DNA of 64,000 bases. It comes from a virus. Position numbers and translations under genes: made by a program. The stretch lies in IMG/VR virus record IMGVR_UViG_3300025012_000003, one strand, 5' to 3'. The notes under the pieces were generated by a model. The model was not told the origin of the DNA and did not search any database. It worked only from the letters and a program-made list of their open reading frames with translations. Of the stretch, positions 3,977 to 56,872 are shown piece after piece (within the stretch, counting starts at the first letter, position 1; each line of letters begins with the position of its first letter).

Positions 3977-4267
3977 TTAATTTACAAGTTCTTCCATACT
4001 ACGGAGAGTAATCATTTCATCATCTGTTAATTCAAATACTTTAAAGTCATTCCAGTACCAATAAAAAGTACTCATAGTTTTACTTTTTTCATAATCATGA
4101 GGTTTATCTAAAGTATCGTTATTATTACAATAGTATCTGAATTCTATACCCGTTATATAAATATCTTTATTAAATCCTCGTTTATGTTGTAATAGATAAA
4201 GTTTATTATCAAGAAAAGAATATTTATTATTCTTTTCTTTACTATCGTCAGGAAATATTCTTATCAT
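3977..4267 (-). CDS. MxEL-tail family protein
   Basis: Tail ELTDDEMITLRSMEELVN*. Confidence 0.8.
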   Translation of the reverse strand: MIRIFPDDSKEKNNKYSFLDNKLYLLQHKRGFNKDIYITGIEFRYYCNNNDTLDKPHDYEKSKTMSTFYWYWNDFKVFELTDDEMITLRSMEELVN

Positions 4268-4494
4268 GATACCAATTCTCCCATAGCTAAATAAGCTAGA
4301 TATTCTTCTTCGGAAGCTTCTCTGTACTGCCTAGAATAATATTTTAATAATTCCTCTAAAGTATAACTATGACTTTTATGTAAGTTACCTATCCCATCAA
4401 TGTAATAAAGTCTTCCTTCTTTCTCAACGTAGAATTCAAAATATCTAGCACCCACTTTATGTGTGAAGTCTTCTCTTATCATAGCATATCTCAT
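4264..4494 (-). CDS. MxEL-tail family protein
   Basis: Tail EASEEEYLAYLAMGELVS*. Confidence 0.8.
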   Translation of the reverse strand: MRYAMIREDFTHKVGARYFEFYVEKEGRLYYIDGIGNLHKSHSYTLEELLKYYSRQYREASEEEYLAYLAMGELVS

Positions 4495-4823
4495 GATATT
4501 AATTCTTTCATCATTAGTAAAGAACGTAATTCTTCTTCTGGATTATCCGTTTCTGGTTCATAAAGGACTCCTTCATATTTTTGACATTCGTGTGGATGAT
4601 TACTGTCATGAAGATAGCACTCCCAATTGTCTTCATTTATAAATTTGAAAGTTCCTGTCTGATGCCAAATACCATTATAGTCTCTCTTAGACTCTATTTG
4701 ATAAGAAACTAATTTGAGTCTTTTTATTAAGATGGCTTTTTCAAACTCTTCATACAAAAGATAATATGTTTTATTATAATCAAAGCTCCAAGCCTTTCTT
4801 AATAAGTCATCTATCTTTTTCAT
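4491..4823 (-). CDS. MxEL-tail family protein
   Basis: Tail PEEELRSLLMMKELIS*. Confidence 0.8.
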   Translation of the reverse strand: MKKIDDLLRKAWSFDYNKTYYLLYEEFEKAILIKRLKLVSYQIESKRDYNGIWHQTGTFKFINEDNWECYLHDSNHPHECQKYEGVLYEPETDNPEEELRSLLMMKELIS

Positions 4824-6066: not shown

Positions 6067-6140
6067 TGGAGCGGGTAGGGAGAATCGAACTCCCTTCATC
6101 AGCTTGGAAGGCTGAGGCACAACCTATATACCATACCCGC
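6067..6140 (-). tRNA. tRNA-Gly(TCC)
   Basis: Cloverleaf, loop CTTCCAA, TTCGATT T-loop, CCA encoded. Confidence 0.95.
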
Positions 6141-6147
6141 TTAATAA

Positions 6148-6230
6148 TACAGGTGAGAGGATTTGAACCTCCACGCTTTTTAAGGCACGAGTGTCTAAAA
6201 CTCGCATGTCTACCATTCCAACACACCTGC
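6148..6230 (-). tRNA. tRNA-Leu(TAG)
   Basis: Loop TTTAGAC, long variable arm, no encoded CCA. Confidence 0.9.
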
Positions 6231-6242
6231 ATAGTATATAAA

Positions 6243-6316
6243 TGGCTGAGGAGATAGGAATCGAACCCATATTCACTGAGTCAAAGTCAGGTGTCCTGCC
6301 GTTAGACGACTCCTCA
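6243..6316 (-). tRNA. tRNA-Gln(TTG)
   Basis: Loop CTTTGAC, CCA encoded. Confidence 0.95.
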
Positions 6317-6327
6317 ATAATTAAAAA

Positions 6328-6402
6328 TGGCTCCCTCGGCAGGACTCGAACCTACAGTCATTCGATTAACAGTCGAACGCTCTACCATTGAGCTACGAGG
6401 GA
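6328..6402 (-). tRNA. tRNA-Asn(GTT)
   Basis: TCCCTCGTAGCTCAATGGTAGAGC..., loop CTGTTAA, CCA. Confidence 0.95.
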
Positions 6403-6408
6403 ATAAAA

Positions 6409-6480
6409 AGCCCTTTGTCAGATTTGAACTGACAACCTTCATCTTACAAGGATGTTGCTCTACCATTGAGCTAAAAGGGC
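6409..6480 (-). tRNA. tRNA-Thr(TGT)
   Basis: Loop CTTGTAA, no encoded CCA. Confidence 0.95.
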
Positions 6481-6483
6481 AAG

Positions 6484-6558
6484 TGGGTGGAAGGACGGGA
6501 CTCGAACCCGCTTTGCTTCGTTCACAGCGAAGGATATTACCCATATATGACCGACCAC
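6484..6558 (-). tRNA. tRNA-His(GTG), acceptor stem with two mismatches
   Basis: Loop CTGTGAA, G-1:C73, CCA. Confidence 0.85.
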
Positions 6559-6559
6559 A

Positions 6560-6633
6560 TGGCGGAACTATGGGGATTTGAACCCCAGACTTCTCGCAGA
6601 CAACGAGTAGTTTTACCCCTAAACTATAGTTCC
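6560..6633 (-). tRNA. tRNA-Asp(GTC)
   Basis: Loop TTGTCTG, CCA. Confidence 0.9.
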
Positions 6634-6640
6634 AAATATA

Positions 6641-6713
6641 TAGATACTGAGAGACTCGAACTCCCGACTTCCTCCGTGTAAGAGAGGCACTCTACCGACT
6701 GAGTTAAGTATCC
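6641..6713 (-). tRNA. tRNA-Val(TAC)
   Basis: Loop CTTACAC. Confidence 0.95.
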
Positions 6714-6714
6714 A

Positions 6715-6790
6715 TGGTCTAGGTGGAGGGACTTGAACCCCCGACTCCCTACGTCCAAGGTAGGATTTCTACCAACTGAATTACACCTAG
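6715..6790 (-). tRNA. tRNA-Pro(TGG)
   Basis: Loop CTTGGAC, CCA. Confidence 0.95.
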
Positions 6791-6801
6791 ATTATAATTA
6801 A

Positions 6802-6875
6802 TGGTGTTTCCTAGAAGAGTCGAACTTCTGTCTAACGCTTATGAGGCGACCGCTCTGCCGTTGAGCTAAGGAAAC
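6802..6875 (-). tRNA. tRNA(CAT), elongator Met or Ile2
   Basis: Loop CTCATAA, G1:C72 paired, CCA; isotype not resolvable by eye. Confidence 0.85.
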
Positions 6876-6876
6876 A

Positions 6877-6954
6877 TGGTAGCAGGAGTTGGATTTGAAC
6901 CAACGACCCCCAGCTTATGAGACTGGTGAGCTAACCAGACTGCTCTATCCTGCG
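6877..6954 (-). tRNA. tRNA-fMet-like (CAT)
   Basis: CGCAGGATAGAGCAGTCTGGTTAGCTC start, C1.U72 mismatch, loop CTCATAA, CCA. Confidence 0.85.
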
Positions 6955-6960
6955 ATAATA

Positions 6961-7034
6961 AGTACCTGATTGGATTTGAACCAACGACTACAGAGGTTGC
7001 AACTCTGCCCCTTAGACCACTTGGGTACAGGTAC
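6961..7034 (-). tRNA. tRNA-Cys(GCA)
   Basis: Loop TTGCAAC, U73. Confidence 0.9.
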
Positions 7035-7035
7035 A

Positions 7036-7110
7036 TGGTGGGAGTAGTAGGTACCGAGCCTACCTCTGGTGCTTTTCAGGCACCCGCTAATCCATCTCAG
7101 CTATTCTCCC
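7036..7110 (-). tRNA. tRNA-Phe(GAA), atypical T-loop
   Basis: Loop CTGAAAA; T-loop CTCGGTA; CCA. Confidence 0.85.
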
Positions 7111-7111
7111 A

Positions 7112-7197
7112 TGGTGCGTTGGGAAGGACTCGAACCTCCAAGTGATTATTAGTCGGGTGGGTTACAGCCACCTGCCATACCGTTAGGCGACCAACGC
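7112..7197 (-). tRNA. tRNA-Tyr(GTA)
   Basis: Loop CTGTAAC, long variable arm, CCA. Confidence 0.9.
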
Positions 7198-7202
7198 ATA
7201 TT

Positions 7203-7272
7203 TGGAGACAGTGGGAATTGAACCCGCTACAACGTCTTTGCAAAAGAAGTCCGCTACCTCAGCGTTATCCCC
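7203..7272 (-). tRNA. tRNA-Ala(TGC), short D-arm
   Basis: G3:U70 in GGGGATA/TGTCTCC stem, loop TTTGCAA, A73. Confidence 0.8.
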
Positions 7273-7274
7273 AT

Positions 7275-7545
7275 GACGGGAGGAGTTACCCTCCCCGACT
7301 TCTAGGCTACGAGAGCCATTTTACGTCCGAAATCTAAAGACACTGTGTTGTTTCCGTTTGTTGTTTTTGCTATTTTTAAAGAGAATGCCCTCTTACTTGC
7401 GAGTTTATCCCTACCTACCACGTCTAATCCACGCACCCCCATGGTGGAGGTGAAGGGAGTCGAACCCTTGTCCGCAACAGACATCAATAAACCTTCTACA
7501 AGTTTAGTCCAATTTGAAGAGTAGGACTTCTCACTAAATTTTCAA
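7275..7545 (-). ncRNA. ssrA: Circularly permuted two-piece tmRNA (acceptor piece ~7545-7442, coding piece 7440-~7275)
   Basis: ...GGACAAGGGTTCGACTCCCTTCACCTCCACCA precedes GGGGGTGCGTGGATTAGAC; G3:U70; helix-2 pairings ATAAAC/GTTTAT and GCAAGT/ACTTGT; tag frame AKTTNGNNTVSLDFGRKMALVA* (7370-7302); outer ends approximate. Confidence 0.9.
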
Positions 7546-7552
7546 GGTACAA

Positions 7553-7723
7553 TTACTTTGTTTTGTATTGAGTTCTTCTGTATTTTTTCCAGCTTCTTCT
7601 TACGGTGTGCCTTGCGTTCTCTACTTGATGCCAAGGACAGAAGGAGCAGGAAGCGAATTTTCTTTTATAGTATTTTTTATAAACACTATTATTAGTAGTT
7701 GTTTTAAAGTCTTCGCTTTTCAT
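7553..7723 (-). CDS. Small basic Cys/His protein (56 aa), not in ORF track
   Basis: MKSEDF...CSFCPWHQVEN...RSWKKYRRTQYKTK*; AGGAGA SD. Confidence 0.75.
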   Translation of the reverse strand: MKSEDFKTTTNNSVYKKYYKRKFASCSFCPWHQVENARHTVRRSWKKYRRTQYKTK

Positions 7724-7800
7724 TTCTTGTATCTCCTGAGTTATTATCCTCAGAGATTATTTAATTCTTTTTTCATGATTGTTTCCTCATATTTAATAAC

Positions 7801-7833
7801 AAAAAAGAGAGGTTCTTTTTTTGAGAACCTCTT
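7801..7833 (-). terminator. Intrinsic terminator upstream of the tmRNA/tRNA array
   Basis: AGAGGTTCT-loop-AGAACCTCT followed by a T run. Confidence 0.8.
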
Positions 7834-8181: not shown

Positions 8182-8210
8182 ATTATATCATGAGATGAAT
8201 TCTTTGTCAA
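8182..8210 (-). promoter_or_regulatory. Consensus sigma70 promoter for the tRNA-operon leader
   Basis: TTGACA-N17-TATAAT. Confidence 0.85.
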
Positions 8211-13148: not shown

Positions 13149-13427
13149 TTACTTATATTTATCATATTTAAATGTTAAATTTGATTTCGGCTCGTCATCG
13201 ATTATTTCAGTAAGTTCCCTCATCATGAGAGCTTTAGTTTCCCACTCTTTAAATTGTTCCTCGGTCATTATTTCGTAGTCTTGATGCTCAAGATAAAATT
13301 CTATGAAATAAGATTCTTCATTACATCCCGCTAAATCACTACCTGCAAAGCAAGAGAGTACCTCTCCGTCTTCGTATTTCATAAGATAATGTCCACTATC
13401 AGGACTTGTTAAATATACTTTATTCAT
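13149..13427 (-). CDS. MxEL family protein, motif internal
   Basis: IMTEEQFKEWETKALMMRELTE + 16 aa. Confidence 0.75.
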   Translation of the reverse strand: MNKVYLTSPDSGHYLMKYEDGEVLSCFAGSDLAGCNEESYFIEFYLEHQDYEIMTEEQFKEWETKALMMRELTEIIDDEPKSNLTFKYDKYK

Positions 13428-13777
13428 GAAACTAATTCCTGCATCATCTTGTATTTATTTAAAATCTCGAAAGCTTCTTTCTGATAATTTAATTCGTATA
13501 TATCCCAAGCACCTTTACAATCTCGATATCCTAAAATGGAATCTTCATATTCAGAAGCATATCTGTGTTTATCATGAGGGTATTCTTTGTCCACAGAAAA
13601 GTCTTCTGATATCTCCCATTCTAACCAAGGATAGTCTCTAAAGAAAGAATCTTTAGTTCTATTAGGAGCATGTAAGTATCCCATAATAAATTCTCTCCCT
13701 CTATCTCCTTCATTGAATTCAAGAGCGAGATAAACTTTCTTAGGATTTATATTCGTTTTTGGAGTAAATTTATTCAA
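13424..13777 (-). CDS. MxEL-tail family protein
   Basis: Tail EILNKYKMMQELVS*. Confidence 0.8.
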   Translation of the reverse strand: MNKFTPKTNINPKKVYLALEFNEGDRGREFIMGYLHAPNRTKDSFFRDYPWLEWEISEDFSVDKEYPHDKHRYASEYEDSILGYRDCKGAWDIYELNYQKEAFEILNKYKMMQELVS

Positions 13778-14302: not shown

Positions 14303-14506
14303 TTACTTTAATTCTTCCAATTCCTTTTTGTACTTTGATTTAATTATAAAAGCAGTTATGGCATAGTAAATAATTGATACTATAGCAAGTGAGATTGTAA
14401 TCTCACACACTGGGAAAGGACTTGCTATAAGAAAAAAAGAAATCCCTATAAGAGTAAATGCCAAGATACAAGATAGTCCACAAGAGTATAATAAAAATTT
14501 AAACAT
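14303..14506 (-). CDS. Small two-TM membrane protein
   Basis: Hydrophobic 67 aa. Confidence 0.6.
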   Translation of the reverse strand: MFKFLLYSCGLSCILAFTLIGISFFLIASPFPVCEITISLAIVSIIYYAITAFIIKSKYKKELEELK

Positions 14507-14798
14507 GTTTATCTCCTTTTAATATTTCTAATAATAATAGTTTAGCTCTTTTATTCCATTCGTTAAAGTAGTCATCTCCATAACATTCTATTACAGCTTC
14601 ACAAACTCTTCTATACTCGTTCTCTAAAATCATACCGTCATTAAGAGCAGTTATAAAATACTCTCTCCAATCAATAGAGAAATTATATCTACTTAATTCG
14701 TTCAATGCTAATGACAAGGGAAGACCGTGAGTATGATAAATCTCATACACTTTCCCTCCGCCTATTACAGATTTACCATCTTCTGTTATCTTAATCAT
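14499..14798 (-). CDS. Alanyl-tRNA synthetase-like fragment protein
   Basis: IGGGKVYEIYHTHGLPLSL resembles AlaRS xSGxxAFxLYDTYGFPxDL. Confidence 0.55.
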   Translation of the reverse strand: MIKITEDGKSVIGGGKVYEIYHTHGLPLSLALNELSRYNFSIDWREYFITALNDGMILENEYRRVCEAVIECYGDDYFNEWNKRAKLLLLEILKGDKHV

Positions 14799-21468: not shown

Positions 21469-21720
21469 TCAATCTCCTGTTAATTCTTTCATAGATAACA
21501 TTGCTCTATATTCTTCCATAGTCATTTTCTCTACCCTATGTGTTACATAGAACCTTATAAAACTATCCCCCAACTTCTCTGCGAAAGATAATGCCTCAGC
21601 CATAAATTCATCATCAGTGCTACCTCCTAGAACAGAATAATGTTCAAATTCTTTCTGAGTAGTAACTCCTCCTATATGATTTAACCAATAGAAGACAGTA
21701 ATTTTGAGAGGTATCTTCAT
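21469..21720 (-). CDS. MxEL-tail family protein
   Basis: Tail MTMEEYRAMLSMKELTGD*; start reset to the ATGA overlap at 21720. Confidence 0.8.
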   Translation of the reverse strand: MKIPLKITVFYWLNHIGGVTTQKEFEHYSVLGGSTDDEFMAEALSFAEKLGDSFIRFYVTHRVEKMTMEEYRAMLSMKELTGD

Positions 21721-22049
21721 GCTACTAATTCCCACATTGTTCTTACGGTATCTATATCTTCTGTTATTCTAGTTACTATCAGATGAGGATAAACTTCGTT
21801 GTTAAATATTGTAGGTTCGTCTAATTCAAAATCATGAGAGACTCTTCCATCTATCCACAATCCTTTTTCTATATCTCTAGCTAAGACTTCGAGTACGTTA
21901 GGAACTCCTCTGCCTAGCATACCTTTTGTTTGTAAATATCCAGAAGAAGTTTTAATTATGAAAAAGTAAACAGGGTCAGTCTCCGTGTAACTATCAAAAG
22001 CACAAGGGTTCTTAACCATCCATACATCTTCTATTTTAATTACTGTCAT
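21717..22049 (-). CDS. MxEL-tail family protein
   Basis: Tail ITEDIDTVRTMWELVA*. Confidence 0.8.
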   Translation of the reverse strand: MTVIKIEDVWMVKNPCAFDSYTETDPVYFFIIKTSSGYLQTKGMLGRGVPNVLEVLARDIEKGLWIDGRVSHDFELDEPTIFNNEVYPHLIVTRITEDIDTVRTMWELVA

Positions 22050-41249: not shown

Positions 41250-42152
41250 TTAACTATTTAATATCTTAGCTAAATCATCTAGCTCATCGTACCACTCATT
41301 GTTTATATAATTCTTAGTTAAATTTTCTAAGTCTCTTAGATTCAAATAAGATACATTATCCATATCAGAATTACTTTTAGATAGTCTTACTTGAAATCTC
41401 CAATAATCTTTTATGGGTAGCATTTTTCTTAATATATATTCTGTAGTATCTGACTGACCGTCCGATACTAAGTCAAACAAATTAGTAGCCCAGTCTAACA
41501 TATTATACTTCTTAATCTTGTTAGGGTCTACATACTCATACAGTGAACCAGTGCCTAAAGATATTAATACTATCTCTTCATTGGGGTACATCTTCTGTGC
41601 TTCTACGTACGCACATAGAGCGGGATTGTTTGCGAATATTCCTCCGTCCACACATAGCATCTCATTCAATACATAAGATTCAAAGAACGTAGGAGCTGCT
41701 GAAGTAGCTCTAGCTATCTGGGATAATAAGATGTTAGAATATCTTTTATCTTCTTTAGTAAAGAAGACAGCTTGCTTAGAAAGTATGTCGTATGTTGTTA
41801 CTAATAATCCTTTATCTGGTCTGACATCCCCTAGCTTAACCCCTTTAAAAATATCATTAAGCACTCCATCTATATCTGATGAGGGATACTTTACAGCATC
41901 GAGGGGATTAAGTTTTAACTTACCCTTGAATATTTTATGTATGGGTTCTTTGGTATAAAAATTATATATATCATTCATATTCATACCAGTAGATAGAAGT
42001 AAAGAGATAATACCCCCTGTAGACGTTCCAGCAAAGAAATCAAAGCTCTGCTGTATTGGTTTATCTAAAAGATTATTCTCTAAGTATCTTAGCAATACAA
42101 TAGGAATTAGTCCTCTACATCCCCCACCATCTATGGATAATATTTTCTTCAT
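41250..42152 (-). CDS. Patatin-like phospholipase
   Basis: ILSIDGGGCRG, GTSTG, DGG motifs. Confidence 0.92.
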   Translation of the reverse strand: MKKILSIDGGGCRGLIPIVLLRYLENNLLDKPIQQSFDFFAGTSTGGIISLLLSTGMNMNDIYNFYTKEPIHKIFKGKLKLNPLDAVKYPSSDIDGVLNDIFKGVKLGDVRPDKGLLVTTYDILSKQAVFFTKEDKRYSNILLSQIARATSAAPTFFESYVLNEMLCVDGGIFANNPALCAYVEAQKMYPNEEIVLISLGTGSLYEYVDPNKIKKYNMLDWATNLFDLVSDGQSDTTEYILRKMLPIKDYWRFQVRLSKSNSDMDNVSYLNLRDLENLTKNYINNEWYDELDDLAKILNS

Positions 42153-56062: not shown

Positions 56063-56872
56063 TTAATCTGGAGTATCTTCTTGTGAACTCTCTTCTGGAT
56101 TTATTAACTTATCGAGTTTCTTTTTAATACGTTTGTCTCGCTTAAGTTCTTTCTTTTCTTCTAGTTCCCTTTTTGTTTGTTCTTCTAAAGCTATTCTAGC
56201 TTCTTCTACTAAAGCTTCTTGTTCTCTTTGTTTCTTACTCTTTCTTTTCTTTTTTGGTTTATCTTCTTCTATCTCTTCGTCTTCTAAATCTTTTAAAGAA
56301 TCTGCCGTAACAGCATCCTCGTCGTTGGTCATGATATAAACATCTTCATTTACGGATACAACATATTTACTTGTTTTCTGAATAGCTTTAAGTATCTTTT
56401 CAGCGGGCGATAGTTTAGTATCTTGTAGAGATTCTAGGATAGCTTGAGAATGGTATTCCCCAGAACCTATGCAAACAAAATTATCAGCGGGTTCTAATAT
56501 AGATAGGTCTGCTTGAACCACAAATAACTTATTCTCTATGCCTACAATGAGTTCACTTCCCCCACCCATTACTTCTACACCATTCACATCTATAAGAAAC
56601 TTTTCTTGTCTTAGACAATTAAGAAGAGAATCGTAAAAAGAATTATAAACATACTCATAAATATCTTGGTCAACAAATCTGGGGACTACGGCTAACTTAT
56701 GAGTCAGTATCTGTATCATCCTAAAACTTCCACAGACTCCTATAATGAAATCTCCTACTTGAAAAACCTTTCTTGGATAGTTTATCTTAGTACCAGTAAA
56801 ACTATTAGAACCAAAACTATCAGTTCCTAAATAAACATATTCCTCAGTTTTTATCCCAACTATACAAGTCAT
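56063..56872 (-). CDS. HslV/proteasome-type Ntn threonine protease
   Basis: N-terminal (M)TCIVG...LGTDS, IGSG; charged C-terminal extension. Confidence 0.8.
   Translation of the reverse strand: MTCIVGIKTEEYVYLGTDSFGSNSFTGTKINYPRKVFQVGDFIIGVCGSFRMIQILTHKLAVVPRFVDQDIYEYVYNSFYDSLLNCLRQEKFLIDVNGVEVMGGGSELIVGIENKLFVVQADLSILEPADNFVCIGSGEYHSQAILESLQDTKLSPAEKILKAIQKTSKYVVSVNEDVYIMTNDEDAVTADSLKDLEDEEIEEDKPKKKRKSKKQREQEALVEEARIALEEQTKRELEEKKELKRDKRIKKKLDKLINPEESSQEDTPD

Follow-up and report, generated by a model that had tools for sequence, protein, structure and literature searches.

The 64-kb stretch of DNA analysed here (the window) is part of a 190,151-bp IMG/VR phage record and carries an RNA gene in which the 3' end of a tmRNA precedes its 5' end by a single nucleotide. 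Two questions are raised by this locus: whether it is a working two-piece, circularly permuted tmRNA gene, and whether the near absence of a spacer between the two pieces signals a permutation event of its own, as the original prediction had proposed. To the first question the answer is probably yes. The gene looks functional, and its 1-nt spacer most likely represents the short end of a continuum of spacer lengths without requiring a separate invention.

Structure of the permuted tmRNA gene

The prediction of a phage-encoded permuted tmRNA with a 1-nt spacer was borne out by the sequence, by ARAGORN and by the Rfam family tmRNA_permuted (RF04321). The Rfam model aligned from position 1 to 213 of 213 with 7503-7302 on the minus strand (98.2 bits, gathering score 47, E 7e-18) and scored 93.8 bits on the related locus L272. 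ARAGORN reported a 'tmRNA*', its permuted form, with the tag GNNTVSLDFGRKMALVA. The parts of the gene are:

7442..7548, minus strand: acceptor piece (Rfam RF04321 alignment and motif coordinates; 5' end approximate, conservation in L272/L274/L276 starting at about 7548)
7532-7519, minus strand: small 5' hairpin of the acceptor piece (motif coordinates)
7509-7504, minus strand: GACUAA of the acceptor piece (motif coordinates)
7503-7498/7400-7395, minus strand: inter-piece helix ACUUGU/GCAAGU (coordinates)
7493-7487/7408-7402, minus strand: inter-piece helix GGUUUAU/AUAAACU (coordinates)
7479-7473/7422-7416, minus strand: third inter-piece helix (coordinates)
7469-7453, minus strand: T arm (sequence)
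7452-7446, minus strand: acceptor 3' strand CACCUCC (sequence)
7445, minus strand: discriminator A73 (sequence)
7444-7442, minus strand: encoded CCA (sequence)
7441, minus strand: intervening segment, a single U that would lie at -1 relative to an RNase P cut (sequence; no change in any related contig or in the metagenome contigs from a diverged strain)
7274..7440, minus strand: coding piece (Rfam alignment, ARAGORN, coordinates)
7440-7434, minus strand: acceptor 5' strand GGGGGUG (sequence)
7433-7423, minus strand: D-loop analogue with an unusual UUAGAC (Rfam alignment, coordinates)
7393-7380, minus strand: hairpin in the place of PK1; a second stem may extend to 7374-7369 (Rfam alignment)
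7302..7355, minus strand: tag frame with resume codon GGA (7355-7353), 17 codons and stop codon UAG (7304-7302) (ARAGORN and translation; GGA is also where Rfam aligns its consensus resume codon)
7278..7295, minus strand: 3' hairpin of the coding piece, GGGAGG/CCUCCC, ending 4 nt before tRNA-Ala; stem invariant in L272 (sequence, fold)

The tRNA-like domain, composed of acceptor stem and T arm, is held by three helices between the pieces, including the two claimed beforehand (AUAAAC/GUUUAU and GCAAGU/ACUUGU). Its 7-bp acceptor stem is formed in trans and is of the alanine type. The expected G3:U70 pair was located at G7438 and U7448 and, together with A73 (7445), makes up an alanine identity that was invariant in all variants compared.

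The motif GGGGGTG occurs just once in the window, counting both strands, and this is at the junction. This confirms the claim that no 5' end lies upstream; the reason originally given, an ORF ending at 7553, is incidental, as this ORF was inserted in the source genome and related contigs lack it. The possibility of a mis-called one-piece tmRNA was considered and rejected, given that there is no second GGGGGTG and that the one-piece model RF00023 produced only truncated half-matches in permuted order (56.8 and 22.7 bits). A truncated match of RF00023 in the window, 61.2 bits and cut at the 5' side, outranks the betaproteobacterial model RF01850 (beta_tmRNA) there.

Only 28 nt with a single hairpin separate the stop codon from the tRNA-Ala gene starting at 7273, which leaves no room for PK2-4 and agrees with the expectation of few pseudoknots. 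Any pseudoknot where PK1 would lie is weak: the first hairpin has 4-5 bp, and the second stem, GCAUU/AAU(A)GC, was drawn by eye, is bulged, comprises 5 bp and displays no covariation. Single-strand minimum free energy (MFE) folding gave z = 0.32, an uninformative value of the kind expected for a two-piece RNA with pseudoknots.

The tag frame reads as originally claimed. Of the two resume codons suggested for it, GGA at 7355 is favoured by ARAGORN and Rfam, and the in-frame GCA at 7370-7368 is less likely. The tag begins with a glycine resume codon and ends in ...KMALVA, a hydrophobic, ssrA-like end, whereas the usual end is ...ALAA and most permuted genes encode ANDxxxALAA.

Genomic context

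The source record is complete with terminal repeats, and the phage recurs across groundwater metagenomes of several studies; none of the sequencing runs found to contain the stretch is recorded as RNA. Its GC content of about 32%, noted as low in the original prediction, says little about the host. A search of a phage isolate collection with the tmRNA DNA returned no match, and a 7-kb megablast against phage isolates matched nothing except a tRNA-Asn. The PolA of the phage reaches no more than about 25% identity with any isolate, indicating a phage without a cultured relative. A protein-atlas search for clues to the host yielded 'Viruses' only, and neither GC content nor the tag was decisive. 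Around the tmRNA gene the following features were recognized:

6067..7273, minus strand: 15 tRNA genes in an array that follows the tmRNA directly, the first being tRNA-Ala at 7273-7202 (ARAGORN, Rfam tRNA matches)
7553..7723, minus strand: basic 56-codon ORF, an insertion specific to the source genome, just upstream of the tmRNA and not part of it
7808..7832, minus strand: hairpin resembling an intrinsic terminator, ahead of the RNA operon (consensus scan)
8182..8210, minus strand: nearest consensus sigma-70-type promoter with 12/12 matches, a candidate only for the tmRNA/tRNA operon (consensus scan)

The tmRNA is the first gene of an operon that continues with the 15 tRNA genes on the minus strand. 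According to the junction table, the array contains the sequence CCA-U-G at its Tyr>Phe, Phe>Cys and Met>Met junctions, identical to the internal junction of the tmRNA. A complement of 16 tRNAs would suit a phage that differs from its host in composition. The array is modular, as seen when 7112-7273 is compared with L274:1497-1649. Here the tmRNA is followed by tRNA-Tyr and a tRNA-Ala lacking an encoded CCA; the relatives have another tRNA-Ala, with CCA, and no tRNA-Tyr.

Upstream of the tmRNA, contigs of three runs and the loci L272/L273/L276 join about position 7551 to about 7800 and so miss some 250 bp including the ORF 7553-7723. The product of this ORF is very basic and has a C-x2-C...H motif; a Pfam search with it gave no match. 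The ORF is flanked by the terminator-like hairpin on one side and the tmRNA on the other; in the alignment of the relatives, some 15 nt separate this hairpin from the point where conservation of the tmRNA region begins. A promoter scan of the interval between the hairpin (7832-7808) and the tmRNA gene found none. A 38-nt stretch at 7760-7797 matched, with 7 mismatches, very deep contigs (147-232x) that belong to other organisms of these groundwater runs, probably by chance or low complexity.

Searches of the phage for SmpB and for a CCA-adding enzyme revealed neither, which fits a reliance on host factors. A suspected 'AlaRS-like fragment' at 14499-14798 was discarded, as a Pfam match was absent at E <= 0.01. 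The phage also encodes a patatin-like phospholipase (41250-42152, minus strand, PF01734, 86 bits).

Conservation and covariation among related contigs

A search by junction pattern identified as relatives the locus L272, the locus L273, which is on the same 158.5-kb contig as L274, and the partial locus L276. The CCA-U-G junction was exact in all of them and in metagenome contigs from runs of three studies. A metagenome scan, confined to spacers of 0-8 nt, added just L274, L276 and three chance matches, and a scan of the viral contigs for kin with the UUAGAC D-loop and a spacer of 9-38 nt found none.

The relatives differ from the source phage in both arms of the tRNA-like domain. Their acceptor stem is GGGGUCG/CGAUUCC in place of GGGGGUG/CACCUCC, and their T stem is GUGGG/CCCAC in place of AAGGG/CCCUU. 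Covariation was assessed on a hand-drawn structure of 48 pairs and an alignment of three sequences, with partners slid by 1-3 columns as the control. All 48 proposed pairs were 100% paired in every sequence of this alignment. Five pairs had changed on both sides (two in the acceptor stem, two in the T stem and one in the 5' hairpin), and the acceptor stem showed one further, one-sided change. With slid partners, pairing dropped to 45-56% and no compensatory pair was left. The tag frame of the relatives deviates by a single synonymous substitution, GAU>GAC at 7332.

The substitutions are strongly clustered: the 42 nt of 7428-7469 contain 13, and the remaining 193 nt of mature RNA contain 3 (Fisher p = 1.3e-8). 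Inside this patch G3:U70, A73 and the CCA remained unchanged. Covariation around an intact G3:U70, A73 and CCA points to selection for a tRNA-like domain that may be both charged and cleaved; with only three distinct sequences, it counts as good but not deep comparative evidence. The clustering looks as if either the entire tRNA-like core had been exchanged in one block or compensatory changes had evolved in a burst. As the changes flank the junction on both sides, the donor in a block exchange would need the same 1-nt layout.

Spacer length among permuted tmRNAs

Short spacers were collected from IMG/VR with a loose junction pattern and an ARAGORN filter, and their length was recounted by acceptor pairing. 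By pattern and ARAGORN, a spacer of 0 nt was found once, 1 nt in the source lineage, 3 nt three times, 4 nt in 11 and 5 nt in 10 cases. When the whole viral collection was scanned for spacers of 0-1 nt, two further, unrelated lineages with 1 nt emerged. One of them (L292/L307/L308) has a U as spacer and the tag DNFVGGFALAA. The other (L310/L291/L306 and relatives) has an A, and two of its members pass the cyanobacterial model cyano_tmRNA (L310 with 98 bits, L291 with 81 bits). The 0-nt gene (L072/L302; IMGVR_UViG_3300035183_000669 and 3300036768_001282) passes beta_tmRNA at 108 bits. In this gene the CCA is directly followed by G1 of the same acceptor stem, an arrangement in which one cut would mature both ends.

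Among bacteria, the acceptor-pairing count gave spacers of 3-4 nt in metagenome-assembled genomes of Rhodocyclaceae and other Proteobacteria. The Rhodocyclaceae genome G006 has a 4-nt spacer in a gene scoring 263 bits on RF01850, the only tmRNA found there; the RF01850 consensus spacer is about 28 nt. Permuted tmRNAs of phages form a continuum from 0 to more than 600 nt. In the papers searched no discussion of near-zero spacers was found.

Short spacers thus arise within recognised lineages, and a near-absent spacer is not special. Together with the 0-nt and the other 1-nt examples, the gene described here defines the lower limit of spacer length.

Proposed maturation and function

In the precursor, the acceptor stem would be closed by a loop of five nucleotides, A-CCA-U. 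Host RNase P is predicted to cut between U7441 and G7440, and this single cut would give the coding piece its mature 5' end. The acceptor piece would be left one U too long, to be trimmed by a host 3' exonuclease that exposes the encoded CCA. A further RNase P cut at the tRNA-Ala (7273) would release the coding piece at its 3' side. The host must resolve such junctions in any case, given the three CCA-U-G junctions between tRNAs of the same operon. The junction within the tmRNA is tighter than those between tRNAs: its 5' leader is its own CCA tail, held in a closed 5-nt loop, and RNase P would have to accept it in this form. The gene would offer a natural substrate in which one predicted RNase P cut falls inside A-CCA-U and the leader is the CCA tail of the substrate itself.

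The assembled RNA would be charged by the host alanyl-tRNA synthetase, as suggested by G3:U70 and A73, and delivered to stalled ribosomes by host SmpB. Translation would resume at GGA 7355 and append (A)GNNTVSLDFGRKMALVA, so that tagged peptides would end in AGNNTVSLDFGRKMALVA (...KMALVA).

Three other readings of the locus were weighed against this working two-piece tmRNA. Decay to a functionless relic, or a mere chance match, could appeal to the lack of a promoter directly upstream. It is extremely improbable in view of an E-value of 7e-18 across the full-length model and of a gene kept in several contigs from different studies, with all helices intact and compensatory changes between strains; the covariation effectively refutes it already. 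Another reading retains a function and dispenses with cleavage: the 5-nt loop would stay closed, and the RNA would act as a decoy whose mimicry of the tRNA-like domain titrates host SmpB and inhibits trans-translation of the host. The precursor junction is indeed a hairpin loop of 5 nt, closed also in the MFE fold; the phage has no SmpB, and an RNA of mycobacteriophage DS6A that comprises the tRNA-like domain only has been reported to inhibit tmRNA (PMC4131195, PMC11915505). A decoy of this kind is nonetheless very improbable here. The CCA, A73 and G3:U70 were kept across a heavily substituted patch and are of importance only if the 3' end is free and chargeable; the tag frame is intact, with a proper stop codon and solely a synonymous difference, and the bacterial and phage relatives with spacers of 0-5 nt include the only tmRNA of a cell.

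The third reading accepts a functional gene and concerns its ancestry, making its permutation from a one-piece tmRNA an event separate from the two-piece lineages of alpha, beta and cyano type. The phage gene passes no lineage-specific model. The best fit is the beta model, which is the best clan member on L272 and remains below threshold there (56.3 bits, gathering score 84). BLAST comparisons with other viral permuted tmRNAs matched the tRNA-like domain only, the acceptor piece retains GACUAA-N-CUUGUAG, aligned to the one-piece RF00023 at high posterior probability, and the tag with its glycine resume codon and ...ALVA end is unlike ANDxxxALAA. On the other hand, the gene shares its plan, namely a break in the PK2-4 region, a coding piece with PK1 only and a very short spacer, with dozens of viral genes and with bacterial genes of the beta type. 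Many viral genes are likewise sub-threshold on the beta model, within a continuum of 53-141 bits, and the roughly 100 alignable nucleotides are too few to resolve the matter. The argument from the near-absent spacer to an independent permutation does not hold, as spacers of 0-1 nt occur inside the recognised beta and cyano types and carry no signal of origin. An independent origin is considered unlikely.

Further observations concern proteins of the phage. A crude ORF scan revealed about 50 small ORFs on the minus strand (67-190 aa) whose products share a near-identical C-terminal tail, M-x-E-L-[V/I]-[S/G/N/A], for example those at 4264-4494, 4491-4823, 13424-13777 and 21717-22049. The tail often follows an acidic EE-h-x-x-h stretch. 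A 269-aa protein encoded at 56063-56872 (minus strand) has a weak N-terminal match to PF00227 (Proteasome subunit; 22.0 bits, cut-off 22.4) and may be an HslV-like protease.

It is conceivable, and in our judgement rather improbable, that the phage has a specific reader to which the tag is adapted, with one factor recognizing both the KMALVA of the tmRNA tag and the M-x-ELV[SGNA] tails. If true, the phage tmRNA would route the products of stalled ribosomes into phage-controlled proteolysis or sorting. Better supported than such a reader is the view that the 1-nt spacer turns the tRNA-like core of the two-piece tmRNA into a contiguous cassette of about 45 nt, which differs block-wise between strains.

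Comparison with known permuted tmRNAs

The original prediction regarded a permuted tmRNA in a phage as unusual. Two-piece forms have, however, already been published for the OM43 phage Melnitz, pelagimyophages and cyanophages, and an ARAGORN count over 18,146 phage genomes arrived at 53 two-piece calls, most of them aquatic (PMC9004378). The tmRNA database of 2025, from which RF04321 derives, holds 79 phage sequences (PMC11915505). The known distribution of permuted tmRNAs is left unchanged by the present finding; what is new is a clean and complete example from a groundwater phage for use in annotation.

With Melnitz, the pelagimyophages and the cyanophages (PMC9004378) the gene has in common a permuted ssrA carried by a large phage of lytic type, an acceptor piece located upstream, reduced pseudoknots and the absence of a phage SmpB. 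Their genes are of the alpha or cyano type and reside in T4-like phages of marine or freshwater origin, whereas the gene of the groundwater phage passes no lineage model, heads an array of 15 tRNA genes and encodes a long and atypical tag.

Among phage isolates, a short spacer is known from Synechococcus phage S-SSM7, whose permuted tmRNA has 5 nt between the discriminator and G1; S-SSM6a and S-CAM1 were grouped with it. Unlike the groundwater phage gene, that of S-SSM7 is of the cyano type (RF01851, 109 bits) and does not encode the CCA. The S-SSM7 locus, called tmRNA* by ARAGORN (NC_015287.1 20967-21318), is overlapped in RefSeq by two CDS for a 'hypothetical protein' and has no tmRNA annotation.

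The betaproteobacterial RF01850 genes, represented by G006, resemble the phage gene in an identical acceptor stem, GGGGGUG/CACCUCC, and in the possibility of a short spacer, 4 nt in G006. They differ in their tag, ANDERFALAA, and in coding pieces with a longer 3' tail and extra hairpins. Similar in the layout of the junction are the viral genes L072/L302, L310/L291 and L292/L307/L308, in which G1 of the same acceptor stem also follows the CCA with 0-1 base between. These genes belong to other phages, carry other tags and are unrelated to the present gene outside the tRNA-like domain.
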